From a virus: DNA of 64,000 bases. Below are positions 45,178-63,421 of this stretch, piece by piece. How positions within the stretch are numbered: the first letter of the stretch is position 1; each line of letters opens with the position of its first letter. A model generated the notes under the pieces. The model was not told the origin of the DNA. It ran no database searches and saw only the letters and a program-made list of their open reading frames with translations. The DNA lies in IMG/VR virus record IMGVR_UViG_3300031746_000002, positions 74,901 to 138,900 of that record, one strand, 5' to 3'. A program made the position numbers and the translations under genes.

Positions 45178-45564
45178 ATGGAATGGTTAAAAAAGATTGC
45201 TAAGGCAAAATATGAAAAGGACGACATTGTAATTCTTGATGATAAGACACAAGGAAAAATAGAAGATATACGATCTGAAAGAGTATGGCAAAAAGTTGTT
45301 TATGTCTATGATCTTAAAATACTCGATGGCCCAGATAAAGGAAAAAAATTGGAGAATGTAAATGAAAGAGCAATAGTTAAGAAAGCATCATTACATAAGA
45401 AAGCAGAAGAGACTGATGCTGAAAGAGCTTCAGGTATTATAATGCTCGCATTAGACAATTTTAGTGATGGAAAATTAAAAATTACAAAAAAGGGTCCTCA
45501 GATTTTAAAAGTTGAAACACCAGATGGGTTTAAATTTGAAATAAATATTGCATTAATATATTAA
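45178..45564 (+). CDS. WL-leader protein, two modules
   Basis: MEWLKKIA; ASLHKKA. Confidence 0.7.
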   Translation: MEWLKKIAKAKYEKDDIVILDDKTQGKIEDIRSERVWQKVVYVYDLKILDGPDKGKKLENVNERAIVKKASLHKKAEETDAERASGIIMLALDNFSDGKLKITKKGPQILKVETPDGFKFEINIALIY

Positions 45565-45573
45565 GGAGCTAAC

Positions 45574-45801
45574 ATGAACTGGTTAAATAGAAAGGCAATG
45601 CAAACTGTTACTGTAGAAATTTCATCTCATGAATTTAGTAAAATTATAACTAAATTACAAAAGCTTACTAATAAGCCAATTAATTTTGATAAGGCAATAA
45701 AAATCATTGTTCAAAATTTTCTTAATAAGCATTTTCAAATAGAACAATTTGATGAAACAGATATTCAATGGCTGAAAGATGATATAGATAAAATGGTATA
45801 A
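45574..45801 (+). CDS. WL-leader protein
   Basis: MNWLNRKA. Confidence 0.7.
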   Translation: MNWLNRKAMQTVTVEISSHEFSKIITKLQKLTNKPINFDKAIKIIVQNFLNKHFQIEQFDETDIQWLKDDIDKMV

Positions 45802-45811
45802 GGAGAATAAC

Positions 45812-46255
45812 ATGAAATGGTTAAAAATAGAATCTCAGCCAGAAGCATCAGTAATGTTAAATGAAAACCAATATAATCGCATTACAGATTTTATTGGTAA
45901 TTTAGCATTAACACTTAAACAGGATAAAGCTTGGGATAAATCAATTGAAGATGCAATTAATGAACTTAAGAAAAGACTGGACAAAAAAGTAGTTGTTACT
46001 GAGACTATTCAAAACAGTTTAAATAAAGAAGCAGCTGGTGAAAGAGCTAATGTTCTTAAAGCGCTTGAAAAGATGAAAGCATCGTTGGAAGATTTGTATG
46101 AACTTGGAAATGTGTTGGTTCCACAAATGAAAGAAATTGGGTTAGAGTATAATACAACAGATATGTTTCAAAAGCAGATAGTAAATGTAATAGGATTACG
46201 AATCATAGATATATTAGAAGATATTACTGAAGATGTACGACATCTAGAAATGTAA
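45812..46255 (+). CDS. WL-leader protein, two modules
   Basis: MKWLKIES; NSLNKEA. Confidence 0.7.
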   Translation: MKWLKIESQPEASVMLNENQYNRITDFIGNLALTLKQDKAWDKSIEDAINELKKRLDKKVVVTETIQNSLNKEAAGERANVLKALEKMKASLEDLYELGNVLVPQMKEIGLEYNTTDMFQKQIVNVIGLRIIDILEDITEDVRHLEM

Positions 46256-46263
46256 GGTATATA

Positions 46264-47625
46264 ATGAAATGGTTAGACAAGCAATCATCAATACTAGATT
46301 ATGGAAAGCCGGGACTAGACGAAGCAGTCTGGGACCCGACGAGTGATTTTAAACTATATCCAGAACATAAGATACAAATTCTTAAAAGACTCTATGATTA
46401 TTTAGAAGCAAATAAATATACACATCATAATGAATGGATATTAACAGGCAGAATAGTTGGTTCGTTAACAAGTTGGAGATATAGTTCATGGACAGACATT
46501 GACTGTCATTTCATTATAAGCTATGGTAAGTTTGGTGAAGTAGAACTTAATGGAACACATGATACAGAAACAATTCAAGAGTCATTGAATGAAATTCAGA
46601 AAAGTCTTAATCGACATAATGTTCCAACACTGGGAAATACACGGCATCCAATAGAATATTATTTTGAAAACCGTGATGACCTTACTGAAGCTGAATTAAA
46701 ACGGTTGAAACTTATAGCAGCAAAAGCAGTTGTTAAGGACGGTGAATATAATTTTGACCCAAAAGATTTTACAGTCAAGAATGATAAATGGACAGTGCCT
46801 GCAAGAAAGATAGATGTAGATTATGATTATGAAGAAATATATAAAAATCTTATTCCTGTTGTAGAAGAAACAATGGAAGAGTTTGATATTTCATTGGGTA
46901 AGATAGATAGGAAGATAACGCAGGTAGAATATTTGGATGATTCGCTTAAAGCATTTAGCAATGACCAAAAGAAGTTATTCAAAGAAAAGATAGAAAAGAA
47001 GCTTGATGAAATTGAAGCTGAAATTCATAATCTTATTAAAACAGGTGAAGCGGCCCATGAGAAAAACAAGGAAGAATTCTTAGCAGATGATTTTGAAGAA
47101 GGCGGAATAGGGAACCTCACATTTAAGTGCCTTCAGAAATATGGATATTATTATATTTTAGTTAAATTGAAAGAGCTGCTTGGAGAAGATAAAGAAGTAA
47201 CAATGGAAAATGTAGATGAGGTAAAAGATATCGTTGAAACAAGGAGGGAAAGCAAAATGGAATGGTTAAATATTAAAGCAGGCGGATTAAACCAAAAAAC
47301 AATAGACTCTGTTGATATAACAGATTTAGAAACAAAAGTTATGGGAATAGTTGGAACAGAAGTTAAATTTAAAAAATCTCTTAGCAATAAGGGAAATTTA
47401 GAACTTGAAAGTCAAGACTTAGTTAATAAAGCTGGTGTCATGAGTCCAGTTTTTAAAACATTGAAAATAGAAACATTCAATACAGAATACAGTGCTAAAG
47501 AAGATGTTATATGGATAACACTTGATTTTCGTTTTGAATTAAAAAATGGTGGGTCTAATGGTGTTCATTTATTAACAGCATGGTATAACTTTGATACTAA
47601 TGATTGGACATTCAGAGAGGAATAA
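46264..47625 (+). CDS. WL-leader Pol-beta-superfamily nucleotidyltransferase + second module
   Basis: MKWLDKQS; IVGSLTS..Y...TDIDCH, HPIEYY; internal SD + MEWLNIKA at 47257. Confidence 0.75.
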   Translation: MKWLDKQSSILDYGKPGLDEAVWDPTSDFKLYPEHKIQILKRLYDYLEANKYTHHNEWILTGRIVGSLTSWRYSSWTDIDCHFIISYGKFGEVELNGTHDTETIQESLNEIQKSLNRHNVPTLGNTRHPIEYYFENRDDLTEAELKRLKLIAAKAVVKDGEYNFDPKDFTVKNDKWTVPARKIDVDYDYEEIYKNLIPVVEETMEEFDISLGKIDRKITQVEYLDDSLKAFSNDQKKLFKEKIEKKLDEIEAEIHNLIKTGEAAHEKNKEEFLADDFEEGGIGNLTFKCLQKYGYYYILVKLKELLGEDKEVTMENVDEVKDIVETRRESKMEWLNIKAGGLNQKTIDSVDITDLETKVMGIVGTEVKFKKSLSNKGNLELESQDLVNKAGVMSPVFKTLKIETFNTEYSAKEDVIWITLDFRFELKNGGSNGVHLLTAWYNFDTNDWTFREE

Positions 47626-47626
47626 T

Positions 47627-48208
47627 ATGAACTGGTTAAACATCAAAGCAAAGAACGATATCCTTTATAAAATAACATTCGATGGTAAGGAATATTATAA
47701 ACGTGCAGATTCTGAAAGCCAAGCATTCAGATATTTCGTTGCATCAAAAATAAAAGAAAGTACTGATGGAATATTCTGGTTCAATCGAAATAGTTATAAT
47801 AAAGACATGATAGGATTAGCAGTTAAGAAACTTATGGAATCTGATGTCAAAATTGAGATTGTCAAGGAGGCGAGTATGAACTGGAATAAAAGAGAAGCAA
47901 ATGAACTAAGCAATAAAGAAATAAAAGATTGTATAAAGGCAATGAGTAAAGAAGAATTAGAAGAAAACCTTATTTATTTAGTTAATGAAATGAGTGATGA
48001 AGATACAAAAGAATTTTTAGGATTAGAAATGAAAGCTGTATTATTAAATAAAAAAGCAGACGAAGAGAAAAAGAAAATACATGTAGAAAAATTACAGGAA
48101 GATGCATATAATTGGTGGAACAACCTTGATGATGGTACAACACAAAAAATAATTACTGAATTATATATGAAAGAAAATAATATTACTGATAAAGATGTTG
48201 ACTGGTAA
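47627..48208 (+). CDS. WL-leader protein, three modules
   Basis: MNWLNIKA at 47627; internal MNWNKREA; LLNKKA. Confidence 0.7.
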   Translation: MNWLNIKAKNDILYKITFDGKEYYKRADSESQAFRYFVASKIKESTDGIFWFNRNSYNKDMIGLAVKKLMESDVKIEIVKEASMNWNKREANELSNKEIKDCIKAMSKEELEENLIYLVNEMSDEDTKEFLGLEMKAVLLNKKADEEKKKIHVEKLQEDAYNWWNNLDDGTTQKIITELYMKENNITDKDVDW

Positions 48209-48219
48209 AGGAGATTAAC

Positions 48220-48777
48220 ATGAAATGGTTAAAGATAAATGCAGATGTTACACCTTCACAAGTCTTTGATGAACTAACAGCAGACATGATTGAGGGAATA
48301 ATTAAGTATCATGAAAGATGGTACAAAAAAGAAGAACCAATTAAAATGGAAACAGTTGATAAATATATATTAGGTTATATGGGTGATATAAAATCTGCTG
48401 TAGTTGAAGGGTTAAAAAAGAAGGGAATTAAAATTGAGGGAGGTTTGAATATGAATTGGAATAAAAGAGAAGCACAGGAAAAAACAGTGTATTCAAAAAT
48501 AATTGATATATTTGGAAGGGAAGCAAAAGTTATAGCTTTTTATTATCCTGATGAGTTGAAAGATATGACTCGTATTCATGCACGTATTGATTGCAGAATA
48601 GATACACCCAAAGAACAATATGCATCACAGACTATAGTTCTATATACTATCCCTGTAATAATAATTACAAAAGATACTGAAGTAAGGAAGAATTATTTTG
48701 AAAAAGGATATAAAGTTTTTGAAATTATTGAACAGGCTGAAAAATACATAACAGATTTTGCAGAAGGACTTGAATAA
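48220..48777 (+). CDS. WL-leader protein, two modules
   Basis: MKWLKINA; internal SD + MNWNKREA at 48451. Confidence 0.7.
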   Translation: MKWLKINADVTPSQVFDELTADMIEGIIKYHERWYKKEEPIKMETVDKYILGYMGDIKSAVVEGLKKKGIKIEGGLNMNWNKREAQEKTVYSKIIDIFGREAKVIAFYYPDELKDMTRIHARIDCRIDTPKEQYASQTIVLYTIPVIIITKDTEVRKNYFEKGYKVFEIIEQAEKYITDFAEGLE

Positions 48778-48788
48778 AGGGAGGAATA

Positions 48789-51700
48789 ATGAATTTTAAT
48801 CTAATTGGGTTAATAAAGCAGGCAAGTAATGCAATATTTGCTAATAAGGGAAAAGAAGAAGCACTAAAAGAATGGGCGCAAGATAAATTTGTAAAAGAAA
48901 CAAAAGAAGGTGTCACATATGATTTTGACTGGGCTGAAATTAAGAAAGAAGGACAGTCGATTGAGATGACAGACAAGCAGATAGATAATGTAATCGAGAA
49001 ACTGAAGAAGGTATCTTCATTGAAAGTGGAAGCAGGCAAACAAATTGTAAAAATATATTATAAAGATCATGTTGAAATGAGAGGCACAGGAATTACTAAA
49101 GTTGAGATTGATGGAGAGCAAGAAACAGCAGACAGATTTTTTGAAAGTTTATTAGAGAATATTTCTGCTGACTTACCAGAATTTTCAGATGAAGATGTTC
49201 ACATATACGTTGGAAACTTAACGCTTTGGACATATGATATTATGTTTGATGCGCAGCCAGAAGTTGATTTGGATAAATATGAGAAATGGCTTGATGAAAA
49301 TTATAAGATAGAATTTATAAAAGAGACCGAAACTTCATTAAAACAATCTTGGCTCGAAACAGAAGAAGCAGTTGGGCCAGATACAGAATATGCTGCAATT
49401 AGATTTCCTGAAGAAGTATCGCAAGGACTTGTTTTTAGGCTTCCTAAAGATTTTGCTTATAATAAAAAAGACCCGCAGGCTGGTCATGAAGTTACAGTTC
49501 AATTATCCTATCCAGAAACAGCAGAAATATTACGGCTCAATGATGATGGCACTATAAATATTAAGATAAAGTATAATGGAGATATTGTCAAAAATTTAAA
49601 TCCAAAAGAATTAAAAGCATCGTTAGAAATAGAAGCATCAGCATACACTGATTTTGTAAAGAGTTATTATAAGGAACATGAAGGTGCAAAGCCTGGAGAT
49701 AAAAAAACAATGCAAGAAATAGGCAAGGCATGGAAAGCATGGAAAATAAAGCATCCTAAAAAGAAAGCATGGTTAAGTAACAAAGCTTATGGTAAATTTC
49801 AAATAGGTGATCAAGTTATAGATGATAATAATGACATAGGTTATGTTAGTGAAGTTAATACAAATAATACATATGATATTGAATATACAAAACTTGATAA
49901 CTTAAAAAGAATTGAAACTGTTCCTGAAGACGAATTAAAAAAAGTAGAATCGAGATTAACCAAAGCAGACTATGAAGAATTTCCTACATATTTTACAGGA
50001 AATGATTTACATCTTACGTTGAGTGCTGAGTCTGTTCCTGATAAAATAAATGATATTGAACAAACAATTTGGGATAGTGATAATCAACAAGCAACAGATG
50101 AATGGGATAGAGAAGCAGAAAAAGTTTTAGATTTAGCTGGTAAAGAATATTGGGAAGAAGCTTTTAAGAATGATCCAAGAGTTGAAGAGATAGTTAGCTT
50201 CGGAATAGAATTAATGAAAAGATATAATATTCCATATCCAAAAAGAAAAGGTTCATTTAATAAAGAAGCAGCTACAAAATCAATAGATGAAATGTCCAAA
50301 GATGAAGCAAAGGAATTATGGAAATCATATGGCGGAGATTTTGATAAATGTGTAAAGAAGGCAGGTAGCTGGGCAAAATCACCAGAGTCATACTGTGCAG
50401 CACTCGCAAAGAAGGCTACAGGTAAAACACCAAAAGAATTAGCTGCATGCCCAGAATGTGGATTGAATATTGAAGCTTCAGCATATACTGATTTTGTAAG
50501 TAAATATTTTAAGTCTCATCCTGGTGCAAAGTTTAAAGATATTGCGAAAGCATGGAGAGCTGGTAAAAAACCATCTAAGAAAGAAGCACCAAAAGAGAAA
50601 GCTCCAGAAAAAGAAGAAAAGAAAGCATGGTTAACTAAAGCAGATGTTGATGATATTCCATCAGCTATCACAAGAGATACGTTGCATTTAGATGCAGATA
50701 AAGAAAAAGCAAGAAAAAGAGAAGAATTTGGATTTCTTCCAATATATGAAATTGGAGATAAAGTAGAAGATATGTATAGCAAACCTGGTAGGAAGGGAAA
50801 GATTTTAGAATTTTCATCAGAAGGAACAGTATTAATAAAATGGGATAATGGTGAAAAGTCTTATCAAGATATGGGTGATATTAAAAAGGCATCATTGCAT
50901 TTGGATGCTGATGATGAATTAAAGATTGGTGATAAAGTAGAATGGAAAGAAGATGTTAGTCAATTACACGATATAGCAGACATGCAAGAATATTGTGGAA
51001 AAGTATTATCAATTAAACCTGGTAGAGGAATGAGTCCCATTGTTGAAGTGAAATTAGAAGACTCTGGTGAAATAGTAGATGTAGAAAGAAATTTCTTGCA
51101 TAAAGTTAAAGCATCATTAAATAAAAAAGCATATCATCCAAGTTGGGAAGATTATAAATATTCTAAAGATCCAAAAGAAGTAGAATTATACAACAAGATT
51201 AAAGAGCAAGCAACTAAAGCAATGGATGATATTGTTAAGATATTGCAAGCAAAGAACTTAGTTGTTAAACGAGTAAGTTTTAAAAAAGTAATTGTAGAAC
51301 AGAAAGATTTATTTGATGGATTTCTTACTATTGAAGTACATGATATGGCATCTAAAATTTCTGATGAATTTGATGAAAATGCAGAACCAATGATTTCAAT
51401 GGATTCAATAGTAGTTCCTAAAGGTGAAACTGATAGAAGAAAATGGAAAGGTGATGTTGCTTCTGCTATGAGTATATCTGAATTTGAAAAGAAACTAGAT
51501 GAACAGTTAGAATATGTACAAAGTGTAACTAAAGAATCACCAATGCATCGCTGGATGGAAAAAGCATCATTGAATAAAGAAGCAAAGATAAAGAAATTAC
51601 CCAATGGCAAATATCGAGTAATGGCAGAAACTGGCAGGAATATGGGAACATACGATACTGAAAAAGAAGCAAAGGAAAGATTGCAACAAATTGAGATGTT

Positions 51701-54700
51701 TAAACATATGAAAAAAAAGAAATCATGGTTAAGTAAAAAAGCATTAGATAGAACAGAATGGGATTTAATAAATGAAGCAGTTGCTGATGTTATTGCTAAT
51801 TTTAAAAAAATAACAAAAATAGAACCGTGGAAAACTATAGATCCTAAAGGACAATTTTATCAGGAGGTAGTTAATAAAACATATCCTACAATTATAGAGT
51901 ATTTAAAGAAAAATTTTCCTGATATAATTGAAGACGGTAAAATTAAATATGAAGAATTTTTATATAGGATGGATGAGGAATTAATGTCATATGCAGACCA
52001 AGCAGTTGAAATGTATAAACAAGAACATGGAATATATCCTGAACCGGCTTTATTAAGAAAACAAGCATTTATCCCAGGTAAAGAAGCATTAGTAGTTCTT
52101 GAAGATTTTAACAAAGACCAGAAACAAATATACCCTGATGCTGCTGATACAGGAATAGTAACAAAGGATAAAGAAGGAACATATCAAGAAGTAGATGCCA
52201 AAATACAGAAAGCATTAGATGAGCTACTTGAAATATATAAAGCAGATATTAGTGAATATACTGGTGGAAAGCACTGGGAAATATTTATTCCTGTTGAAGA
52301 AGATGGAAAATATCTTGCAGGATATTATGTATCAGTTAGTAAAAATACAGACAAAGCAAGAGGTATAGAGTTCTTTAGCATCGATATCATGCATGAAAGA
52401 AGGGAAAACGTTAATGTTAATGATTTCTATAAAAAGACAGCTTGGTTAAAAAAAGCAGCTAATGATTATTCAAAAGCTGAGAAAAGTAAAAATAAAATAA
52501 TAGAACAATTACAGCAAAGAGCAAACACTAAAGGTATTCGTGAAAACTGGGGAGACAAAGAACTTAGACAATACCAAGATTGGTTGGAAACTTTAAATTT
52601 AACATATGCAGAAAAATCTAGTTTATATGTTGCACTATCACAAGCACTCAGTTCTATGACTGAAACAAAAGCTTCATTAAAACATAAAGCAGATGATGAA
52701 CTTTCAGCAGAAGATAAAACTGTAATCGCTAAGGGAAAAGAAATACTTGAGAAAATGAAAAAAGAAAATGTTGATATACTTGATATCGATGCTTATGAAC
52801 CTACAGGAGATATAATGATGCTAGTAGGTGAGGGCATTGCTGATGCTATAAATTCGCATGGTAAAAACTTCTTTGAATGGGATATTAAAATGGGAAAAAT
52901 TAATATTCCTGATGAAGTTAGAACTAAAATCAATGATGATAAATTAAATCGAATATATCAAGATGAAGCGCAATTAAATGTAAAGACATTGGGCGATGAA
53001 ATTGTAGATGGATATTCTTGGGCAGAAGATTGGTATCAAGAAGGCAGGATGGGTGGTTGGTTCTGTATTGAAGCTGATTTCAATGAATTGGTTAGTGATA
53101 TTAATAGTTATCAAATATTTGTAGATGATTTAGAGAAAGCTGTAGAAGATAAAGATATTACAACAGTACAAAAATATTTAGATAAGGATATTAAAGAAGC
53201 AATAATACTTTCAGAGAAGATTTCAAAGCAGATTAAAGCTATTGAAGATAACTTAACAGAAATTAATAGTGATGTAGAAGCAATGTTAAAAGGTTTTAAA
53301 GAAGAAATGGAAAGTGTTAAATTCTGGAAAGAGTATTATGATGAAGAAACAAAATCTTCATTAAAGAAAGAAGCTGCTGCAATGGATGATGCAAAAGAAG
53401 CTGTTGATGAAATTTTAGAAGGAATGAAAAGTATTCCTTTACATCAAGGTACTTGTGATGTAACAGAGATAATGAATTTTCATGAAATAGCAGAAGGAGC
53501 AGGATTGACAGAAGAAGAGTATGATAATTTAATTGATTATGCTCAAGGAAAACTTAATAAAAAAATTAAAAAAATATATTATTCTTCATTAAATAAATCT
53601 GCTGAGAAAGGTGAATATTATCTTAGTAAGGGTTATGATATATACGAAGATGATGATGGTAATACAATTTATTTTGATTCGCATGAAGATGCAAAACGAT
53701 ATATGGCTGATAATGAATTGATAGGGTGGTCAATTACTAGAGAAGGATTTCCTTCTGAAAGTTCATTAAATAAAAAAGCGAAGAAAGTGCATATGATAAA
53801 GGACCTGAATGTTGAATGCACAGTTGTTGATGAGCTTGGCAATGGCAAAAAGAAACAATGTGAATACATAGACCCGATCACAAAGAAATTAAGAAAGACT
53901 TGGTTTCCAAGTGAAATGATTTCTTATATTGAAATCGATGAGAATAAACCGCCAATTGAAAAGGCTTCATTGGAGAAAAAAGCAGATAAACTTCAAATAG
54001 GCGATAAGGTATTTGTTAAACCTGGAAATTATAAAGTAATTCAATATAGTACTACAGATGAACCAGTTTATTCAAATGAAATTCGTAATATTGAAAAAGA
54101 AGAAATTGGATTTATCAAGGAAATTTTGCTAAATGATTTAATCAATATAGAACTTAAAGAAGATGGAACTATCATTGAATCTGCAGAAGGCTTATTTGTT
54201 AAGGCATCTAAGCATCAGCTAGATTATTTATATGAAGGAGACAAGGTTGTACTACTTAAAAATATTAAAAATAAAAAGAAAGATGATGTTGGTGAAATAG
54301 AAGATGTTCATGAAGGATCTGAACCTGATTATGATATATACAATGTAAAATTTCCTGATGGAACAATTTTAGAAGATTTAGAAATCAGCAAAGACTTTAA
54401 AGATGCTTCTGGAAAACAAGCTTCATTGAAAAAAGAAGCAGCACTCACATCAAACGAAAAATCAAGTATTTTAACTTTAGCAGATGCAGCAGAAAAAGCA
54501 GGTCTTATTGCTATGGAAGAAATAGTCGAATTTGTACTTGGTGGATTATCTGAAGAAACTAAAGAAAAGATAGCAGACCATGAATATAAAATGATAAGCG
54601 ATTTAATTAAAGGAATTCCTGCTAAAAGTGAATTAATAATTGAAGGCGCAGATATATCTCAGCTTTATGAGGAATCATATCTGAAACATATAAAAGAACT

Positions 54701-55091
54701 TACAGATAAAGGAATGCCAGAAGATGAAGCAATTATAGAAGCACTCGAAGTAGTATTTCCAGAATTACTTGAACAAGCAAGAAAACAAAATTCTGAAAAG
54801 AGTGTAATTGAACATGTAAGAAAAAAGCTTCACCCAAAAGCAGAATTGAATATGGAAGAGATTTCAAAGCAGTTAGGTATTCCTATAGAAAATATAATTA
54901 CTATAAATATACCAAACTGTGAAGAATATATTTTAAAAGAACATGGGCTTGATGTATTGAATATGCTTACTTTTAGACTTCATGCTTCTTTGGATGAAAC
55001 TATAAAACAATTTAATATGGTTAAAGAGGAAGCAGAAACAGTAGAAGCATTGTATGACAAATACGAACATTTTTATTCAAAGGAGAAATAA
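48789..55091 (+). CDS. 2100-aa modular polyprotein (about 20 or more modules)
   Basis: About 20 (S/W)LxKxA-type linkers separate SH3/KOW-like, HMG-box-like and other small modules. Confidence 0.75.
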   Translation: MNFNLIGLIKQASNAIFANKGKEEALKEWAQDKFVKETKEGVTYDFDWAEIKKEGQSIEMTDKQIDNVIEKLKKVSSLKVEAGKQIVKIYYKDHVEMRGTGITKVEIDGEQETADRFFESLLENISADLPEFSDEDVHIYVGNLTLWTYDIMFDAQPEVDLDKYEKWLDENYKIEFIKETETSLKQSWLETEEAVGPDTEYAAIRFPEEVSQGLVFRLPKDFAYNKKDPQAGHEVTVQLSYPETAEILRLNDDGTINIKIKYNGDIVKNLNPKELKASLEIEASAYTDFVKSYYKEHEGAKPGDKKTMQEIGKAWKAWKIKHPKKKAWLSNKAYGKFQIGDQVIDDNNDIGYVSEVNTNNTYDIEYTKLDNLKRIETVPEDELKKVESRLTKADYEEFPTYFTGNDLHLTLSAESVPDKINDIEQTIWDSDNQQATDEWDREAEKVLDLAGKEYWEEAFKNDPRVEEIVSFGIELMKRYNIPYPKRKGSFNKEAATKSIDEMSKDEAKELWKSYGGDFDKCVKKAGSWAKSPESYCAALAKKATGKTPKELAACPECGLNIEASAYTDFVSKYFKSHPGAKFKDIAKAWRAGKKPSKKEAPKEKAPEKEEKKAWLTKADVDDIPSAITRDTLHLDADKEKARKREEFGFLPIYEIGDKVEDMYSKPGRKGKILEFSSEGTVLIKWDNGEKSYQDMGDIKKASLHLDADDELKIGDKVEWKEDVSQLHDIADMQEYCGKVLSIKPGRGMSPIVEVKLEDSGEIVDVERNFLHKVKASLNKKAYHPSWEDYKYSKDPKEVELYNKIKEQATKAMDDIVKILQAKNLVVKRVSFKKVIVEQKDLFDGFLTIEVHDMASKISDEFDENAEPMISMDSIVVPKGETDRRKWKGDVASAMSISEFEKKLDEQLEYVQSVTKESPMHRWMEKASLNKEAKIKKLPNGKYRVMAETGRNMGTYDTEKEAKERLQQIEMFKHMKKKKSWLSKKALDRTEWDLINEAVADVIANFKKITKIEPWKTIDPKGQFYQEVVNKTYPTIIEYLKKNFPDIIEDGKIKYEEFLYRMDEELMSYADQAVEMYKQEHGIYPEPALLRKQAFIPGKEALVVLEDFNKDQKQIYPDAADTGIVTKDKEGTYQEVDAKIQKALDELLEIYKADISEYTGGKHWEIFIPVEEDGKYLAGYYVSVSKNTDKARGIEFFSIDIMHERRENVNVNDFYKKTAWLKKAANDYSKAEKSKNKIIEQLQQRANTKGIRENWGDKELRQYQDWLETLNLTYAEKSSLYVALSQALSSMTETKASLKHKADDELSAEDKTVIAKGKEILEKMKKENVDILDIDAYEPTGDIMMLVGEGIADAINSHGKNFFEWDIKMGKINIPDEVRTKINDDKLNRIYQDEAQLNVKTLGDEIVDGYSWAEDWYQEGRMGGWFCIEADFNELVSDINSYQIFVDDLEKAVEDKDITTVQKYLDKDIKEAIILSEKISKQIKAIEDNLTEINSDVEAMLKGFKEEMESVKFWKEYYDEETKSSLKKEAAAMDDAKEAVDEILEGMKSIPLHQGTCDVTEIMNFHEIAEGAGLTEEEYDNLIDYAQGKLNKKIKKIYYSSLNKSAEKGEYYLSKGYDIYEDDDGNTIYFDSHEDAKRYMADNELIGWSITREGFPSESSLNKKAKKVHMIKDLNVECTVVDELGNGKKKQCEYIDPITKKLRKTWFPSEMISYIEIDENKPPIEKASLEKKADKLQIGDKVFVKPGNYKVIQYSTTDEPVYSNEIRNIEKEEIGFIKEILLNDLINIELKEDGTIIESAEGLFVKASKHQLDYLYEGDKVVLLKNIKNKKKDDVGEIEDVHEGSEPDYDIYNVKFPDGTILEDLEISKDFKDASGKQASLKKEAALTSNEKSSILTLADAAEKAGLIAMEEIVEFVLGGLSEETKEKIADHEYKMISDLIKGIPAKSELIIEGADISQLYEESYLKHIKELTDKGMPEDEAIIEALEVVFPELLEQARKQNSEKSVIEHVRKKLHPKAELNMEEISKQLGIPIENIITINIPNCEEYILKEHGLDVLNMLTFRLHASLDETIKQFNMVKEEAETVEALYDKYEHFYSKEK

Positions 55092-55093
55092 TT

Positions 55094-55339
55094 ATGAAAT
55101 GGTTAACTGCAAAAGATGAAGAGAACAAAGAACTTGCAATGGGAATTAAAGTAGAAAAAGAACATGAAGCAACTATTAAACAGATTATTGACGATGTAGA
55201 AAATGATAAGGTACAACCGATAGAAAAGTATCAGGAGCTAATTGCAAAGGACCATCTTAAAGAATCAGATATCTATTACACTGAACTTAACAAGATGGAA
55301 AAGAAATTAGAAAAGAAAAAAGAAGAGGTAGAGGAATAA
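55094..55339 (+). CDS. WL-leader protein, DUF5661-like
   Basis: MKWLTA; ELAMGIKVEKEH...IAKDHLKE...YYTEL.KME. Confidence 0.65.
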   Translation: MKWLTAKDEENKELAMGIKVEKEHEATIKQIIDDVENDKVQPIEKYQELIAKDHLKESDIYYTELNKMEKKLEKKKEEVEE

Positions 55340-55995
55340 TGGCAGTCATAAGGAAGTACGTTATTTCATCTGTAATTAAAGCATTGAAATATGATCCTGA
55401 GAGTCATAATCTTGAAATAGAATTTAAATCAGGTGGGAAATACAGATATAGTAATGTTGAAGAAGAAGAATTTACTACATTCGCAAAAGCAGTTTCAAAA
55501 GGGAAATATTTTAATAAGAACATTAAGAACGGTTATGAATATGAAAGAATTTCAAGTCTAATTCATGGAGGTAATACAATGAACTGGTTAACAAGGAAAG
55601 CAAAAGCAGAAGATGAAGTATACTTCTTAGTAAGTACTAGTTGTGATGTAGTAGAAGATAGTTTTGAAAAGGGTGAAATAAGTGATTGGCGAAATACGAT
55701 GTTTGAAAAAGAAAATAAAAAGTTTGATACAATCGATCATCTAGTCGAATATCTTTATAGCAACTATGGACTTTCAAAAGATAAATCAGAGTATACAGCA
55801 GATGATGGTCAGCTCACAACTAGTATTATGCAGGATGAAGACGGAAACTCAATTGGTGAAGTTGATAATAAGCTTAAACAATGGAAAGAAGGCAAAGCAA
55901 GATTGTGGAATGCTTATTATATAATGCACATAGAAATTGTTAAAACAAATGAAATAACTACTGAAGAACTACGCAAACTCGGTTTCACAGGATAA
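55339..55995 (+). CDS. KTSC domain + WL-leader module
   Basis: SSVI..LKYD....LEIEFKSGG.YRY.NV...SKGKYFN..IK; internal SD + MNWLTRKA at 55579. Confidence 0.8.
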   Translation: MAVIRKYVISSVIKALKYDPESHNLEIEFKSGGKYRYSNVEEEEFTTFAKAVSKGKYFNKNIKNGYEYERISSLIHGGNTMNWLTRKAKAEDEVYFLVSTSCDVVEDSFEKGEISDWRNTMFEKENKKFDTIDHLVEYLYSNYGLSKDKSEYTADDGQLTTSIMQDEDGNSIGEVDNKLKQWKEGKARLWNAYYIMHIEIVKTNEITTEELRKLGFTG

Positions 55996-56305: not shown

Positions 56306-56677
56306 GTGAAAATAAGTTATATTATAATCGCAGTATTGCTTTTAGCAGTAATGGCAGTTCCGGTTCATGCTGCATTACCAACGAATATAGGAAGTTATAG
56401 TGTAATTACTACTACAACATCAGTAACAACATTTCTACCTGCTAAACAGGTTTTAATATTGTTAGATATTTATGCAGTAACTACATCTACTTATACAGTG
56501 GGTAATATAGTACTGTCAGATGCTACTGGGGCAAATTCGATTACCTTAAGTGTATTACCAAATAAAAGTAAGACAAGGAGTGTTATGCCAAGCATAACTC
56601 CCTTAAAGTTTGGTAATGGTTTTAATATACAACCAAAAGGTACTGGAGTTTCAGCAATACCTGTTTATTTAAAATAA
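56306..56677 (+). CDS. Secreted protein with signal peptide
   Basis: GGAGG + GTG 56306; KISYIIIAVLLLAVMAVPVHA|A. Confidence 0.6.
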   Translation: MKISYIIIAVLLLAVMAVPVHAALPTNIGSYSVITTTTSVTTFLPAKQVLILLDIYAVTTSTYTVGNIVLSDATGANSITLSVLPNKSKTRSVMPSITPLKFGNGFNIQPKGTGVSAIPVYLK

Positions 56678-56680
56678 TTA

Positions 56681-56720
56681 TTGGAGGGTTAGGTTAACTC
56701 CAACTAACCCTCTAATTTTT
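56681..56720 (+). terminator. Rho-independent terminator
   Basis: TTGGAGGGTTAG/CTAACCCTCTAA + T5. Confidence 0.75.
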
Positions 56721-56870
56721 AGCAAAGGAGACTTAGTTGAATTCACCACATGCAACATGCGCATTATTACAGTTTAAAGAAGGATTAAGAACTATAAAAA
56801 CGCATATTGATTCGCGTCCAAAGATAAAAGTAATAGCTTCAAATAAACAAAAGAAGAACGGTAAGAAATA

Positions 56871-59800
56871 ATGGAAAACAATTTTATAACTTGTCAGAAC
56901 TGCCAAAAGCAGGTTGATTTGAATATTACACCAGAGATAGCAATGGGTGCAACAAGATGTCCTCATTGTAATTCTGTGTTTGATAATAATGGAAGTATAA
57001 TAAAGATAGCAACACAACCTTCATTTAAAGAGGGTGATAGAGTAATGGACATTAGGGACAGTTCAATTGGAACTGTTAAAAATATCCAACTACCATTTGA
57101 ATTCGGTTCAGCACAATACAATGTGAAGTTTGATAATGAAATGAAAAATGATGTTGATGAAAAATATCTTCGCTTAATTAAAGGAGGACAAGTGAATAGT
57201 TGGTTATCTAAAAAGATAGAAAGTAAGCTGCAGGGAATTGGCGTTATAGCAAAAAGAGTTCCACCATTGAGAGAATGGAGAGAACGCAAACATGATTTCA
57301 TAACTGTATATCACCCTGACAGATATATGACATTCAAAGAATTTGTTACTAATAACTGGGATATATATGGTTTTGATTTTGATATAGATAAACAAGTAAT
57401 ATGGCCGCTTAAAGGAACTTCAACAGAAAAATTGGTTAAAGATTTAAAAGAAGATGGTATAGATACTAAAGTAATGACAATGAGTTATGAAGACATGTTC
57501 GGTGATTATTATAGATTATTTAAAATACCAGTACCACAAAGAGCTTCTTTGCCAACAATTGCTGTAGAAAAAGCATTAGAGAAAAAATTTATTCAAGTGC
57601 TTGATGATGGGACAGAAGCAGATTTTCCTATTGATAATATTGCTGATAAGTTTAGACCGCTTGTTGATGAAATGAAAATTGGTGAATTAATGAGTCTTGG
57701 ACCATTGAAGATTAAAAGAATTGCAGAAACAAAAGCTTTATTAAAGAAAGAAGCAGTAGATGTAAAAACACTTGAGGGCAGAAAATTTAAAGACAGAAAT
57801 TCTGGTGAAATACTTACATTCCAGTATGAGCACAGACATCCAATAACCAGGGATATAGTAAATATAGTATTTGAAGATAAAGATGGAGTAGAAGTCGCCC
57901 TGCGGTCATGGGATGAGGTGGATATACAACCCTTAGAGACCAAAAAGGGTTCATTAAATAAACAATCAGATTTAGGAGGAATATCTAATTCAGTATTAGT
58001 AGTTATAGAGGATAATAAAGAATTTAGTCCTGAAGGGATAGAACATTGGGCAAAAGAAGAAAATATAAACATAGATGAATTAAATAGAACATTGGCATAT
58101 CTTTTAGAGACACAAATGATTAATAAAAAAGATAACATATATTCAATAACAGCGCAGGGTAAACAATATTTAAAAGATACTGGATTTATAAAAAATGTAG
58201 CTTCATTAGAAAGAAAAGCAGCTTTAGAGAACCTTGCAGTAGTATCTCGAAAATTCTCAGGACTTCTTGTAGGCATAGCACAATATGCTCTTACAAATTT
58301 ATTGAATGAAGAAGACCCACAGATAAAAACTGCAAGTGCTAGTTATAATAGCCAAGTTTCATTGATGGATATTCATACAGATGTAAACAAAATAACGCCA
58401 GTAATTTCAAGCGTGACAGCTACTTATAAAAATATGATTATAGAAGCTGCTTTAAATTATGGCGATTTCACTATAAGCTGTTATGCACCTACCCGCGATG
58501 AAGCTCATGAATGGATAGAAAAGCTTGAAACAAAAATGCTTAATGAAAATCAATACAGAGGCAAATGCTTATATGCAGAAAATGGAAACATATCATTTCA
58601 TCAAGTACCTGAAGTTGTATGGGATGATATAATTCTTGATGCAAATATTAAGAGTGATATTCGAATGAACACAATTGCATTTCTTGGGGATAAGAGACTA
58701 GCTGATACTGGTGTATTTAAAAGAGGCATTGTAATGTATGGACAGCCAGGAACAGGTAAAACATCAGTAGTGAAAGCTATCTTCAATGAATTAAATGAAA
58801 AAGGTGTTAGCAGAGTATATGTTACATCAGAGTCATTCAGACAGATGAGTGCTAGTAGTTTATTTAGTCTATTACCTTATTTAGGAAAAGCGGTAATAGC
58901 TTTTGAAGATATAGATATGATAGGGACATCAAGAGATATTATGTCAATGTCTGGAAATGGAATATTGGGTGATTTATTAACTAACCTTGATGGAATGAGA
59001 AATTATAATGAGCAAATAGTTATTCTAGCTTCAACGAATAAGATGTCAATGCTTGATGAAGCTCTGGCAGACAGACCTGGAAGATTTGATAGAAAAGTTG
59101 AGATAACACTTCCAACAAAAGAAAATCTGACAGCACTATATAAAAAGTTTTCAGGATTAACAGTTTCTAGCGATATCATTAATCTATCTGAAGGCTTTAC
59201 AGGATCGCATGTAGTTGAAACTGTAAACACTGCAAAAATATTAGCAGCACATGATAATAAGAAAATAGATGATTGTATGATAGAAGCTTGCAACATCATT
59301 AGGGATAATTTCTTCGTTGGACAAAAACAATCACAAATCAAAACTGCAGCTTTACATAAAATTGGAATAGTAGAAAGAGGCGAACAATATAAATCATTAA
59401 ATGATGCTGATAAAATCGATCCTATCTTTATACCAGGCAATACAGAAATATGGTACGCAAAAAGTATTAGCACTGCAAACAGAATGTATGATGAAGAAAA
59501 AATGCCATTCTCAAAAGAAACATTTAAAGACACACATATGTTATTAGGGAAAGTTTCATCTACAGATTTAGATGAAATATTCCAGAAGATGCAAGGTGAG
59601 TATTGGTCTCCAAGAGGTGAAGCATTTACAATGATAGGTGATAGTGAAACAGACCATACATCAATGAGTGTTGGTGATGCTATAAAAATTGGAGATGTAA
59701 TTAGTATAGTTGCACCAGAAGGATTTAAACCATTAGCTGAATTAAAAAAAGAAACGAAATGGTTGGGATTTAAATTTAATCCTGGAGATAAAGTTGAATT

Positions 59801-60530
59801 AATCAGCGGGGATTATCAAGGAAAAGCAGGTACAGTTATAAGATATGAAGATGATTATGTATTAGTTAGGACAGAAGAAAAAGAAATAAAATGTCAGCCA
59901 GAAACATTGAAAAAATTATCTTCATTAAATAAACAAGCAAAAGTTACCATTGAAGAAACAGTAGTTGATTTAGACCCATTAGAAGCAAGGATATATAATG
60001 ATTTAATACTTAAAAGCAAAGTATCTCCAAAGAAAGCACTTGAGATAATGTGGAATACTCTTGAAGGAGACTATACACAACTCAGCCCAGCACTATTAAA
60101 ATATGTTCAAGATCATTTAGAAAAGAAAAGTTGGTTAAACAAAAAAGCAGCAGATCGAAAAGAACTTAGCGATACTGTATATGATGATAGTGATTTTGAT
60201 GGGGATTTCAAAATTAATGAAGATAATTATGTAATTGAAATTTTAGAAAAATTATTTGATAAAGACTATTATAAAGAAATAGAAGCTACTGAAAATATAC
60301 CAACTAAAGAAATGCAATCAATAATAGATGACATTGTAGATTATTATGAAGAAATTTCAGATATTGTAACTGATTTTGATAACTGGGAAGATAATATAAT
60401 AGATGGATATGTTGAAAGTAGTTCTTTACGAGACTCAGCTGATAATGAGATTTATGATATTCAAAAGAGTATTCTCCCATTAGAGAAGAAATTAGTAACT
60501 ATGATTTATGATTTCGTAGAAAAGAAATAA
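56871..60530 (+). CDS. Modular polyprotein containing AAA+ ATPase, YodL-like and SH3/KOW modules
   Basis: GQPGTGKT, AFEDID, STN, DRPGRFD; HTSMSVGD; linkers LLKKEA, GSLNKQS, ASLERKA, SSLNKQA, SWLNKKA. Confidence 0.8.
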   Translation: MENNFITCQNCQKQVDLNITPEIAMGATRCPHCNSVFDNNGSIIKIATQPSFKEGDRVMDIRDSSIGTVKNIQLPFEFGSAQYNVKFDNEMKNDVDEKYLRLIKGGQVNSWLSKKIESKLQGIGVIAKRVPPLREWRERKHDFITVYHPDRYMTFKEFVTNNWDIYGFDFDIDKQVIWPLKGTSTEKLVKDLKEDGIDTKVMTMSYEDMFGDYYRLFKIPVPQRASLPTIAVEKALEKKFIQVLDDGTEADFPIDNIADKFRPLVDEMKIGELMSLGPLKIKRIAETKALLKKEAVDVKTLEGRKFKDRNSGEILTFQYEHRHPITRDIVNIVFEDKDGVEVALRSWDEVDIQPLETKKGSLNKQSDLGGISNSVLVVIEDNKEFSPEGIEHWAKEENINIDELNRTLAYLLETQMINKKDNIYSITAQGKQYLKDTGFIKNVASLERKAALENLAVVSRKFSGLLVGIAQYALTNLLNEEDPQIKTASASYNSQVSLMDIHTDVNKITPVISSVTATYKNMIIEAALNYGDFTISCYAPTRDEAHEWIEKLETKMLNENQYRGKCLYAENGNISFHQVPEVVWDDIILDANIKSDIRMNTIAFLGDKRLADTGVFKRGIVMYGQPGTGKTSVVKAIFNELNEKGVSRVYVTSESFRQMSASSLFSLLPYLGKAVIAFEDIDMIGTSRDIMSMSGNGILGDLLTNLDGMRNYNEQIVILASTNKMSMLDEALADRPGRFDRKVEITLPTKENLTALYKKFSGLTVSSDIINLSEGFTGSHVVETVNTAKILAAHDNKKIDDCMIEACNIIRDNFFVGQKQSQIKTAALHKIGIVERGEQYKSLNDADKIDPIFIPGNTEIWYAKSISTANRMYDEEKMPFSKETFKDTHMLLGKVSSTDLDEIFQKMQGEYWSPRGEAFTMIGDSETDHTSMSVGDAIKIGDVISIVAPEGFKPLAELKKETKWLGFKFNPGDKVELISGDYQGKAGTVIRYEDDYVLVRTEEKEIKCQPETLKKLSSLNKQAKVTIEETVVDLDPLEARIYNDLILKSKVSPKKALEIMWNTLEGDYTQLSPALLKYVQDHLEKKSWLNKKAADRKELSDTVYDDSDFDGDFKINEDNYVIEILEKLFDKDYYKEIEATENIPTKEMQSIIDDIVDYYEEISDIVTDFDNWEDNIIDGYVESSSLRDSADNEIYDIQKSILPLEKKLVTMIYDFVEKK

Positions 60531-60541
60531 GGAGAAAGTTA

Positions 60542-60772
60542 ATGCGTGAAATAAAATCGCTTGAGTACAGAATTAAATTAATCCAGCGGTTACATGCAGA
60601 AAAATATCATATTGAAGTACTCAATGATATTGGTAATTATGAATATGTATTTTCTTGTAATAAAGTAAATGGTAAAGTTTTATCACATAGAATTCATATA
60701 ACGTATGATGAAATAGGGCTTCTTCCAGATAACATAATAGACCCAGTGCTTTATTTAATGCAGATAGTTTAA
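60542..60772 (+). CDS. Hypothetical protein
   Basis: AAGGAG SD. Confidence 0.55.
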   Translation: MREIKSLEYRIKLIQRLHAEKYHIEVLNDIGNYEYVFSCNKVNGKVLSHRIHITYDEIGLLPDNIIDPVLYLMQIV

Positions 60773-60809
60773 GAGATGTTAAAAATATTATATTGGGAGC
60801 GAAAGTGTA

Positions 60810-62126
60810 ATGTTAGAACGATTTAAAGAAGGATATAAAGGAATATTCGGAATTAATGACCATGAGTCAAAAAGACATCATTGGGACCTTCGATTGGAGG
60901 CTCCTAATGGTTCTTTGAAGGAATATAAAAAGAAACGAACAGAGGAGTCCCCAGAGCACCCTGGGACTGATACAAAGACTACTTTAGTTAGCTGGGCATT
61001 ACCAAAGCACCATTTACCAAAGGATAAAGAAAAATTGATGTTAGTATTAGTTGAAGATCATCCTGTTGAATATATTACAAAACAGAAGTACCCAATGGAA
61101 ATTCCTGCTGGATTATATGGTGCAGGTAGAATAGAACTTGAAGATGAAGGAACATATGAAGTTATTATGTCTTCAAAAGAATCTATGATAATTAAATTAA
61201 ATGGTAAGAAACATAAAGGAACATATAATATCATTAGTACTGGTGGGGATAAATTCCTAATTACAGAACATAAAGGAGATAGTAAAATGGAAAAGAAAAC
61301 TAGTTTAAAAGTTAATAGGATTGTAGATGACTCTGGTAAAGTGTTGTTTATTGCAGCTAATGATTATACAAGAAATACTTTTATAAATGTTTATAGCAAG
61401 ACTGTTATAAATGAAACAGAATGGTTAGATGCTATAGTTGGATTTCAAAAATCTTCTGATATAGAAAAAGGAAAAGCAAAAGTTATGAAATTTAATGAAC
61501 TTAAAATAGGTGATGAATTTTCTTTTGCTAGTGACACTTCAATGATTTATACATTAGACTATATCAGTGAAGGTACAGCTTATGTTACTACAAAAAAAGG
61601 AACTAAAACAACTACAGATAAACTTGATATTAAAAAACGTGCTGATGATAAGGTATTTAAAATCATAGCAGACATAGCTGTAAAGAAAAAAATAAAATAT
61701 TTTCAGCAAGAACCTTTGAAAACTATGGAAGATTATCCAGAGTTTCTAAAAACTATTAATCCAAGAATGCAAGCTGAATTAGAAACAATGGCAAACGGAT
61801 TATATAAAGAAGCTTCAGGTTTATGGAATTCAATTAAGACTATAGTTGATTTAATCAGTCCTTTTATAGGTTGGTTTGTAAAAAATCCGAAATTAAAGCA
61901 AGCTTATAATTTGCTTGTAGAAGTTATTCGTGAAAAACAAGCTATTTATGGTGATAATATTATAACTATAACAGCAGAAGAATATTTAAAGAAAAAATAT
62001 TCACATTATAATAAAGATTTATTTGAAGAGTTAGAATCATATTTACTTGATAAAGGACGGTCGTTTGACAGTTATACTGAAAATGATATAAAGGCAATAA
62101 TTTCTTGCAGAAAAATTAAGGATTGA
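60810..62126 (+). CDS. LigD-type 3'-phosphoesterase domain + additional modules
   Basis: HHWDLRLE, LVSWALPK, VEDHPVEY, IPAGLYGAG. Confidence 0.8.
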   Translation: MLERFKEGYKGIFGINDHESKRHHWDLRLEAPNGSLKEYKKKRTEESPEHPGTDTKTTLVSWALPKHHLPKDKEKLMLVLVEDHPVEYITKQKYPMEIPAGLYGAGRIELEDEGTYEVIMSSKESMIIKLNGKKHKGTYNIISTGGDKFLITEHKGDSKMEKKTSLKVNRIVDDSGKVLFIAANDYTRNTFINVYSKTVINETEWLDAIVGFQKSSDIEKGKAKVMKFNELKIGDEFSFASDTSMIYTLDYISEGTAYVTTKKGTKTTTDKLDIKKRADDKVFKIIADIAVKKKIKYFQQEPLKTMEDYPEFLKTINPRMQAELETMANGLYKEASGLWNSIKTIVDLISPFIGWFVKNPKLKQAYNLLVEVIREKQAIYGDNIITITAEEYLKKKYSHYNKDLFEELESYLLDKGRSFDSYTENDIKAIISCRKIKD

Positions 62127-62779
62127 TAATGCCAAAAGGAATTTATAAAAGAACTAAAAAACATAATGATAATATAAGTAAAGGACTTATGGGTAAAACT
62201 AAAGGAATAAAATTTACTAAAAAACATTGCAAAAGTTTAAGTAAAGCAAGACAGATATTATTAAAAAAACAAGGATATTTAAATTCACCAAAAACTATAA
62301 AAAAGCATATAAAATCAATTAAAATAACTAATGATAAAAAAAGAAAATTATATAATGGATATGCGCAACCACCAGAGCAAAGAGAAAAAATAAGTGCTAA
62401 TAATATTAAACGTGCTTTACACGGTCTTGGTAGTTGGGGATATAAAGGTGATTTCTTTTCTATGAAGAATAATTGTTTAATTCATTATACTTCATCTGGT
62501 GAGTATGGATTTTATATGGCATTGGAATATTTAGATGATGTAATAAAATATGAAGTACAACCATTTGGAATAAAATATTGGTTTAATAACAGCTTTCATC
62601 ATTACATGCCAGATGTTCTAGTTTATTTTAAAGACAGAACTAAACAATTAATAGAAATTAAACCAGCATTTTTATTAAAAGACAAACAAGTTATAGCTAA
62701 AGCAAAAGCAGCAATGGTGTATTGTAAACAAAATAATATGGAATATAAATTTTATACTGAAAATGGATTTATAAATTAA
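62123..62779 (+). CDS. Free-standing homing endonuclease (NUMOD3-like + TnsA-like)
   Basis: MPKGIYKRTK, FFSMKN, YMPDV...LIEIKP, KAKAA..YC..NNMEYKFYTE. Confidence 0.75.
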   Translation: MIMPKGIYKRTKKHNDNISKGLMGKTKGIKFTKKHCKSLSKARQILLKKQGYLNSPKTIKKHIKSIKITNDKKRKLYNGYAQPPEQREKISANNIKRALHGLGSWGYKGDFFSMKNNCLIHYTSSGEYGFYMALEYLDDVIKYEVQPFGIKYWFNNSFHHYMPDVLVYFKDRTKQLIEIKPAFLLKDKQVIAKAKAAMVYCKQNNMEYKFYTENGFIN

Positions 62780-62794
62780 AAAAGGAGATAAATT

Positions 62795-63421
62795 ATGAAA
62801 TGGATTAAAGAAAGTAAGACCCTGAATAAAATCGAGTCTAAGATTTCTAAAGAAAAACCAACATCAATACCACCAGTTGGACAAAAATGGGCTTGGAGTA
62901 ATGACGATCAAGAATGGATTTTAGTTACTGCTTCAATAGAAAATCATTTTAAAATAGGAGATCCTGTTTGTTTGCTAAATGAAAATGAAATAACAGGAAA
63001 AGTTGTTGGTATACATGGTGAATTTTTAAAAATTGACTTAGGGACTATTCCGCGTAAAATATCTAGATACCATTATTCAAAATTAATTTTAGCTGATGAT
63101 ATAGCAGAACTCCCAAAGAAAACTGTTGAAGATAAACAGGTATCATTTGCAGAATATATGCGAAAACGTGAAGCTGCTAGGAAGATACTTGCTATCATCC
63201 TTGATAAAATTAAATTCGTTGGGATTAAAAAAGAAACGCCAGTTACTACAGATAAAGAAAGTGACATGCAACCTGTGTTTAATATAAATGCATCTGTCAG
63301 AAAAAAAGGAACAATCTTGACTGGAAAAATAACAGATATTAAAAATGATAATTCAATTACTGTAAAATGGAATAATGGAAATGAAACTACAAATTGGCTT
63401 TTAGAACTCGAAAGAGTATAA
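62795..63421 (+). CDS. WL-like leader protein with SH3-like modules
   Basis: MKWIKES; FKIGDPV; G.IT.I.....VKW.NG. Confidence 0.6.
   Translation: MKWIKESKTLNKIESKISKEKPTSIPPVGQKWAWSNDDQEWILVTASIENHFKIGDPVCLLNENEITGKVVGIHGEFLKIDLGTIPRKISRYHYSKLILADDIAELPKKTVEDKQVSFAEYMRKREAARKILAIILDKIKFVGIKKETPVTTDKESDMQPVFNINASVRKKGTILTGKITDIKNDNSITVKWNNGNETTNWLLELERV

Follow-up and report, generated by a model that had tools for sequence, protein, structure and literature searches.

The stretch analysed here, referred to as the window, comprises the last 64 kb (64,000 nucleotides) of the 138.9-kb phage contig IMGVR_UViG_3300031746_000002 from the IMG/VR collection, for which the completeness estimate is 68%. 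The source virus is large and uncultured, and its closest cultured relative is Bacillus phage G, which shares 30.9% identity in the major capsid protein (MCP, compared with gp27) and 35.8% in the protease domain (compared with gp19), and no close relatives were found in a search of IMG/VR with the MCP. The main feature of the window is a short peptide motif, [SW]-L-x-[KR]-x-A, which is strongly concentrated in genes around the head genes, opens small proteins as a leader, divides long proteins into modules and has variants near the N-termini of the portal, the prohead protease and the MCP. Judging from the sequence, we suggest, with a probability of about 55%, that this motif is a targeting and cleavage site of the phage's own prohead protease, which would cut after the alanine.

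The strict motif was scanned over the 44,619 amino acids (aa) encoded by the contig and gave 25 matches, where about 1.8 are expected from within-protein shuffles. As many as 22 of these lie within 14 carrier genes (6,853 aa) located around the head genes, for which the shuffles gave 0.28 on average, with a maximum of 2 in 200 trials; this set of 14 was chosen after the matches were known. The remaining 37,766 aa hold three strict matches against 1.5 expected, so that there is no excess outside the carriers. Control motifs obtained by reversal and by permutation occurred 0 and 0 times in the carriers, and 1 and 6 times elsewhere (about 1.4 to 1.5 expected), and together with the within-protein shuffles they exclude chance or composition as the source of the motif. 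The first-pass annotation, an earlier description of the window, had proposed such a scan, and its expectation of a concentration in the head block was borne out.

From a position matrix the fuller consensus K-K-[AS]-[SW]-L-x-K-[KE]-A was obtained, of which about nine residues are conserved. The matrix places 16-17 sites in the open reading frame (ORF) of 2100 aa that starts at 48789, six in gene 3039, four in gene 8603 and five in gene 56871, which is close to the approximately 20 linkers in the first of these and the 4-7 in each of the others that had been counted earlier. The same annotation had reported that the large terminase subunit (TerL), LigA and the accessory genes are without the linker, and at p<=1e-4 the matrix indeed finds no site in TerL, in the ligase or in genes 60810 and 62123. 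The leader M-[KNE]-W-[LI]-x(1-4)-[AS] opens nine genes, all of them inside the head block of the window and all nine as previously listed. The ORF caller gave eight M-x-W-[LI] starts among 202 ORFs, and the ninth start, that of 47627, lies inside ORF 47591 at an ATG preceded by a Shine-Dalgarno sequence of its own. Genes with the leader or the joint are the following, in window coordinates:

3039..5669, + strand: string of 876 aa with about seven modules and an MKWL leader; six internal linkers, with the final Ala at aa 221, 328, 428, 506, 605 and 716
8603..10261, + strand: string of 552 aa with about five modules, starting MLTKQA; four linkers, with the Ala at aa 94, 157, 216 and 291
45178..45564, + strand: small gene with the leader MEWLKKIA and an internal ASLHKKA
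45574..45801, + strand: small gene with the leader MNWLNRKA
45812..46255, + strand: small gene with the leader MKWLKIES and an internal NSLNKEA
46264..47625, + strand: leader MKWLDKQS and a module of 339 aa, followed by a second module behind an internal Shine-Dalgarno sequence, ATG and MEWLNIKA at aa 332
47627..48208, + strand: leader MNWLNIKA and three more motif sites, one of them with an internal Shine-Dalgarno sequence and ATG (MNWNKREA)
48220..48777, + strand: leader MKWLKINA, with an internal Shine-Dalgarno sequence, ATG and MNWNKREA at aa 78
48789..55091, + strand: string of 2100 aa with at least 18 modules; besides the matrix sites, ALLRKQA at aa 1087-1093 and GLIKQA at aa 7-12, near the N-terminus
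55094..55339, + strand: DUF5661 protein with the leader MKWLTA
55339..55995, + strand: KTSC domain, then an internal Shine-Dalgarno sequence, ATG, MNWLTRKA and a second module
56871..60530, + strand: string of 1219 aa with a Zn-ribbon region, a winged helix (aa 396-443), an AAA ATPase (aa 620-746) and a KOW domain (aa 971-1009); five matrix sites
62795..63421, + strand: leader MKWIKES; the homologue in a relative is a protein of 255 aa

Four internal M-x-W copies (at aa 332 of 46264, aa 81 of 55339, aa 96 of ORF 47591 and aa 78 of 48220) have a GGAGG-type Shine-Dalgarno sequence 6-9 nucleotides upstream. Because these copies retain a Shine-Dalgarno sequence, the N-terminal leaders and the internal joints are one element, found at different stages of gene fusion. 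As an internal ATG and a strong Shine-Dalgarno sequence precede the M-x-W leader in each case, the second modules of 46264-47625, 47591-48208, 48220-48777 and 55339-55995 could also arise alone through internal initiation.

The motif falls at module boundaries, which is best observed by comparison with the relatives that were gathered by means of the protease (59 loci, plus four whole records). In 56871 one motif, at aa 445, is placed just past the winged helix and another, at aa 1018, past the KOW domain, while the AAA domain is free of it. In the 2100-aa protein the segment aa 922-987 corresponds to a free gene of 141 aa with an MNWL start in the relative G001. Moreover, a single 782-aa protein of G001 contains the counterparts of two further segments in reversed order, with aa 977-1165 corresponding to its aa 229-407 and aa 1318-1541 to its aa 9-249, and there the matched pieces are bounded by motif variants of G001 itself, SSLNKKS (231) and ASLQKQS (413). 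A HMMER search with aa 700-1899 of the 2100-aa protein found 387 proteins at E<=1e-3, many of them small and free-standing. Among the best 150 of these 387 matches, which are not independent since one 53-aa module family dominates them, 53% start and 57% end at a motif, against 19% and 18% under random placement, and only 22 extend across a motif, where 58 are expected and the minimum in 500 trials was 43. For the module at aa 1094-1216 there are ten free-standing homologues whose first residue falls exactly one position past ALLRKQA, the Ala of which is residue 1093. The DUF5661 protein, which has its own leader here, is fused in two relatives to the protease-scaffold protein behind NSSLNKKA. 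The first-pass annotation had placed the motif between unrelated modules, a description with which the permuted and free-standing modules of the relatives, breaking at their own motif variants, agree as far as sequences can tell.

Little can be recognised in the modules themselves. A Pfam scan of the 52 split modules identified only the winged helix (HTH_45), the AAA ATPase and the KOW domain, and KTSC and DUF5661 were found by scanning the whole proteins with Pfam. The claim that the pieces are effectors for injection is thus left without support, these five being all that was recognised. The N-terminal module of 46264 resembles viral NTP_transf_2 clusters of the ESM Atlas with a score of 0.96, which makes the 339-aa module a candidate nucleotidyltransferase, to be taken as a lead only. 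A module with the pattern (S/T)-(A/S)-Y-T-D-F...G-K-A-W-K occurs twice in the 2100-aa ORF (at approximately 49638-49787 and 50460-50590) and once in 3039 (approximately 4854-4960), always directly behind the motif. Its 'SAYTDFV..GKAWKAWK' form has by eye the likeness of an HMG box, an identity to which Pfam gave no support and which was rejected.

Four head-region proteins also carry the motif:

10438..11658, + strand: conserved head-region protein of 406 aa adjoining the portal, with motif sites at aa 28 and 226
11685..13616, + strand: portal (PHROG portal, E 2.5e-41), with AALKREA at aa 51-57 (matrix p 5.5e-5)
38800..41253, + strand: prohead protease with a scaffold-like tail; leader 1-44 leading to SFLKKAA (39-45), fold at aa 48-235 with His97 and Ser148, and SAKREA at 591-596
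41970..42923, + strand: HK97-type MCP with an N-terminal extension of 30 aa ending in GLQRQA (Ala30)

The variants near the N-termini of the portal, the protease and the MCP (aa 25-30) had been noticed before and are all present at these places. Outside the carriers the best matrix scores belong to the portal, the 10438 family and the protease N-terminus (p 5.5e-5). The second site of 10438 (aa 226) aligns with KKSSLNKQS of a relative, which has an insert of 130 aa at that point. In 12 of 12 aligned MCP N-termini G-phi-x-[KR]-x-A-[SGA] is the sole conserved feature ahead of the capsid fold, and the MCP of phage G, which has no N-terminal extension, begins at residue 32 of the present MCP, two past Ala30. 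An L-x-[KR]-x-A site was found in 4 of 7 aligned scaffold regions, among them those of the closest relatives, where it keeps its position.

The product of gene 38800 contains, at aa 48-235, a domain with the T4 gp21/assemblin fold, in which His97 and Ser148 (in VSMG) are invariant in 44 sequences, and it is matched by PHROG 18299, 'head maturation protease', with an E value of 1.5e-17. The earlier assignment of this gene as the head protease is supported by this predicted fold. Residues 1-44 are disordered and the confident fold starts from about residue 48, right behind SFLKKAA. The protease-scaffold gene is located 0.7 kb upstream of the MCP gene, and the gene order is the same in the relatives. 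Since the motif marks the MCP N-terminus, the scaffold, the protease's own N-terminus and the portal, which are classical substrates, this protease is the likely reader of the motif. The polyprotein reading of the first-pass annotation gains from the protease fold, from the presence of the motif on classical substrates and from its position at module boundaries, and is partly supported in this form, with the effectors taken out of it and with cleavage, packaging and ejection as putative steps.

In phage T4 the prohead protease gp21 removes a capsid-targeting sequence from the internal proteins IPI-III and Alt, at the motif (L/I)-x-E. We propose that K-K-[AS]-[SW]-L-x-K-[KE]-A, or loosely phi-x-[KR]-x-A, may be the recognition site of the prohead serine protease of this phage, and that an N-terminal M-x-W-L-x-x-K-A would act like the T4 sequence, bringing the protein into the assembling prohead and being trimmed afterwards. 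Between modules the motif would be the cutting joint of the four long proteins (876, 552, 2100 and 1219 aa) and of several two-module proteins, whose pieces may be packaged and may have a role after injection. The scissile bond would most likely lie right after the Ala, and the same rule would trim 30 residues off the MCP, free the protease from its leader and its scaffold tail, and trim the portal. A cut after K-x-A would fit the starts of the free-standing homologues and of the phage G MCP. The likeness to T4 consists in a short common N-terminal leader on unrelated small proteins near the head genes, nine of them here, and, at the sequence level, in a leader that ends in the motif also present on capsid, scaffold and protease (here the W-L-x-x-K-A leaders on one side, and MCP, scaffold, portal and protease on the other). 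In contrast to T4, the motif here is L-x-K-x-A, probably cut after Ala, it is repeated inside long multi-module chains, which the T4 internal proteins are not, and protease and scaffold form one fusion protein.

The motif might instead be a docking peptide only, through which proteins attach to the scaffold, to the protease or to the inside of the capsid and are loaded into the prohead, much as with the cargo-loading peptides of encapsulins, the repeats then giving multivalent anchoring to chains that stay uncut. Such a role would agree with the length of the conserved part, with the helical drawing of the motif in an AlphaFold2 model of low confidence, and with the persistence of the motif as a minimal N-terminal tag of 5-6 residues on free-standing homologues (MNKIA.., MIIKEA..), beyond what a cut site needs. 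Nevertheless the motif is placed where maturation cuts are expected, namely at the MCP N-terminal extension, the protease leader and the scaffold, and phage G dispenses with the MCP extension altogether. Docking without cutting seems unlikely to us, and it overlaps with the proposal of a protease site, since the capsid-targeting sequence of T4 unites docking and cutting.

In the relatives the motif takes other forms, such as SSLNKQS together with MNWLNKKS leaders, MKF.KLIK[AS] leaders and WFKIA. Head-region genes of phage G begin with (M)KRLIKK[AS], and in megaphages (200-470 kb) with the same protease family the head genes begin with M-x-[YF]-K-x-A. De novo motif counting ranked the linker or leader first in two of the four relatives (G002 and G003), the first rank in G001, in G005 and in the present genome being taken by unrelated repeat proteins. 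Of the 28 records with the 53-aa module family, 17 also have the same protease family, as do 6 of the 7 that are at least 90% complete. No match to the 53-aa module was found in cultured phages. In the megaphage loci L079, L088 and L103 a protein of 220-250 aa with the 53-aa 'KLPNGKYRV' module is encoded about 2.5 kb upstream of the protease, as a conserved neighbour in phages of 200-470 kb, and relatives of this protein are encoded in at least 284 viral stretches.

This co-occurrence of the motif with head genes and with the family of the 38800 protease in relatives also bears on whether the chains are cut at the motif by some other protease, of host or phage, in the cytoplasm and with no packaging. 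With the contig at 68% of completeness a further phage protease might lie in the absent part, and the AAA ATPase and other cytoplasmic-looking modules would be odd cargo for a head. However, no second protease family was found among 72 upstream proteins, 34 window proteins and the 52 split modules scanned, the only 'peptidase' match being a U32 domain, and we consider cutting by another protease very improbable.

At the DNA level, TCATTRAAWAARRAAGCA with at most two mismatches has 27 matches in the genome against 0.69 expected, all on the + strand. Each is in frame and in the sense direction of a gene, and there are no intergenic ones, which rules out a promoter, a terminator or a binding-site element. 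Identical 18-mers are shared among different genes. The Ser of the motif is encoded by TCA or TCG in 16 of 19 cases in this genome (genome-wide share of Ser codons 37%), in 10 of 10 in G001 (28%) and in 7 of 8 in G002 (32%). For the Ser-Leu pair, TCR-TTR is used in 15/17, 8/9 and 6/7 motifs of these three diverged genomes, whereas other Ser-Leu pairs use it in 65/195, 35/186 and 22/92 cases (pooled, 29/33 versus 122/473). The excess of TTR for Leu is on its own significant only in this genome (21/21 versus 66%) and not in the two relatives, where TTR is common. The Lys and Ala codons of the motif follow genome usage, and the motif sites of MCP, portal and protease keep the residues with other codons and do not share the TCR-TTR bias. 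Codon-pair context as the cause of the bias is ruled out by the non-motif Ser-Leu pairs. No phage tRNA matching the biased codons was found on the contig, where only those for Leu (CAG), Gln and Pro are present. Programmed frameshifting at the A-runs is disfavoured by reasoning, position 5 of the motif being too variable for a slippery site.

Alternatively, the motif could mainly be a recombination joint, a shared in-frame stretch of about 18-21 nucleotides at which modules are swapped, fused or split, with the peptide tolerated as an uncleaved linker, flexible or helical. The conserved synonymous positions of Ser-Leu in three genomes, the 18-mers repeated in different genes, the permutation of module order at the motif between relatives and the Shine-Dalgarno sequences kept at the four internal M-x-W sites, which point to recent gene fusions, would all follow from it. 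On the other hand, the Lys and Ala codons inside the motif are at genome usage, the residues kept with other codons in MCP, portal and protease speak for selection on the peptide, the peptide pattern persists in relatives although residues have changed, and the DNA matches are all in frame on the coding strand and never intergenic. As the main function of the motif such a joint is quite unlikely in our opinion, yet it is compatible with cleavage and both can hold. One way in which both might hold is a cassette joint acting on two levels, where the peptide would be the protease cut and loading signal and the DNA, TCR-TTR-AAN-AAR-RAA-GCN, a crossover point at which cargo modules could be exchanged, joined or separated, inside one phage or from one phage to another, kept uniform by recombination. 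Recombinational copying of the joints could explain the TCR-TTR bias, and the cassette joint would explain why modules are permuted at the motif as well as why synonymous codons are conserved in three diverged genomes; we put it forward as a doubtful though conceivable extension.

Several observations weigh against the reading of the motif as a protease site, the first being that a signal read only at the protein level would not predict this conservation of synonymous TCR-TTR positions. Genome-wide, the plain [KR]-x-A triplet shows no enrichment (334 against 303 expected) and is ruled out as a signal, the excess being confined to the longer [SW]-L-x-K-x-A. Likewise L-x-[KR]-x-A occurs in the first 14 residues four times against 1.2 expected, with a maximum of 5, which is not significant. 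The AlphaFold2 single-sequence model of the 8603 protein, too poor to place the linkers with its mean pLDDT (predicted local distance difference test) of 43.7, draws the motifs within helices and not in loops; its one fairly confident block, aa 221-280, falls between two motifs. In the widespread 53-aa module family phi-x-K-x-A, with an invariant Lys, adjoins the conserved domain without a break, and it could there be part of the fold. As to the protease, no Pfam family was matched at E<=0.01, no chain was matched in the PDB profile search, and Foldseek alone against the PDB gave nothing at E<=1e-3, the best value being 3e-3. Moreover GLQRQA of the MCP scores poorly with the linker matrix, and in two relatives the linkers end in Ser and the MCP sites in Ala, so that linker and MCP motifs co-vary untidily.

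A probable cut after Ala is reminiscent of the herpesvirus assemblins, which cut after Ala. Their maturation and release sites differ in spacing and in the basic residue, and they belong to eukaryotic viruses and have no cargo polyproteins. Known systems also include SPN3US gp245 and phiKZ gp175, with extensive proteolysis of head, inner-body and ejection proteins. According to PMC10052503, the portal and large internal proteins are among the many head proteins that bear several copies of one short protease motif, and propeptides contain more than one site; these proteases cut after Glu and nearly all of the cuts take off N-terminal propeptides. In the present phage the motif divides folded modules along the whole chain, and the capsid lineage is phage-G-like, of HK97 type without a delta domain. 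The system of the window thus differs from those of T4 and of phiKZ/SPN3US in the motif, in the probable post-Ala cut and in the recurrence of the motif as a joint along chains that reach at least 18 modules.

The long chains also recall the polyvalent proteins of Iyer, Burroughs, Anand, de Souza and Aravind (2017, PMC5512222), which are very long, have many unrelated and shuffled domains, are located near head genes and are proposed to be packaged and delivered. The likeness lies in the modules of the 2100-aa ORF, which are permuted or free-standing in relatives. Release by zincin or other peptidase domains within the chain is proposed in PMC5512222, whose main text does not contain the word 'linker' and whose only 'prohead protease' stands in the reference list. 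No hallmark domain of the polyvalent proteins (MuF, zincin peptidase, ParB, methylases, ADP-ribosyltransferases) was found by Pfam in the whole proteins or in the 52 modules, only HTH_45, AAA, KOW, KTSC and DUF5661. The motif is not described in the literature found, including the accessible parts of PMC10052503, PMC12484599, PMC5646251, PMC5694885 and PMC5512222, a coverage outside which the virion mass spectrometry of phage G lies. The supplements of PMC12484599, in their accessible part, contain annotations, and no per-protein virion detection was found in them under the identifiers tried.

The window has a G+C content of about 31% and its + strand carries nearly all genes, and the upstream 75 kb of the contig contain tail, baseplate and replication genes. 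One gene is interrupted by an intein:

5673-8591: TerL, split by an intein with an HNH nuclease (Intein_splicing aa 112-454, HNH aa 358-397)

Inteins are also present in several protease homologues of relatives. A TnsA-like endonuclease domain was found at the C-terminus of four paralogues, three in the window (188-1039, 16295-16939 and 62123-62779) and one at G000 28844-29719; one of these has a NUMOD3 motif, and the PHROGs label for the family is 'head closure'. They are probably free-standing homing endonucleases spread over the genome. Upstream of the window, G000 21691-25023 encodes a protein of 1110 aa with twelve 31-residue repeats around S-F-x-R-S-D-H-K-H, the most over-represented short motif of the genome, and this protein is probably a tail fibre with His-x-His repeats. 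Among the cargo-like genes, 60810-62126 encodes a protein of 438 aa with a LigD-type 3'-phosphoesterase domain (aa 56-142), which is without the motif. The tRNA-Pro (TGG) gene is predicted by ARAGORN at 16204-16278 of the window, and those for tRNA-Leu (CAG) and tRNA-Gln (TTG) are placed upstream of the window. Finally, three neighbouring ORFs of 57 aa at 24045-24591 resemble a small tandem gene family.

If the proposed role of the motif is true, phi-x-K-x-A would be a readable rule for entry into the head and for the position of the cut in phage-G-like phages and in the many megaphages with the same protease family, and genes with no known function could be sorted into head cargo by sequence alone over a large clade that is mostly uncultured. 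Phage G, with (M)KRLIKK[AS] leaders on its head-region genes, offers a cultured representative in which the rule is open to test. It would also mean that a head protease of the T4 fold has shifted from Glu to Lys/Ala specificity, and that many proteins may be delivered compactly from one gene.

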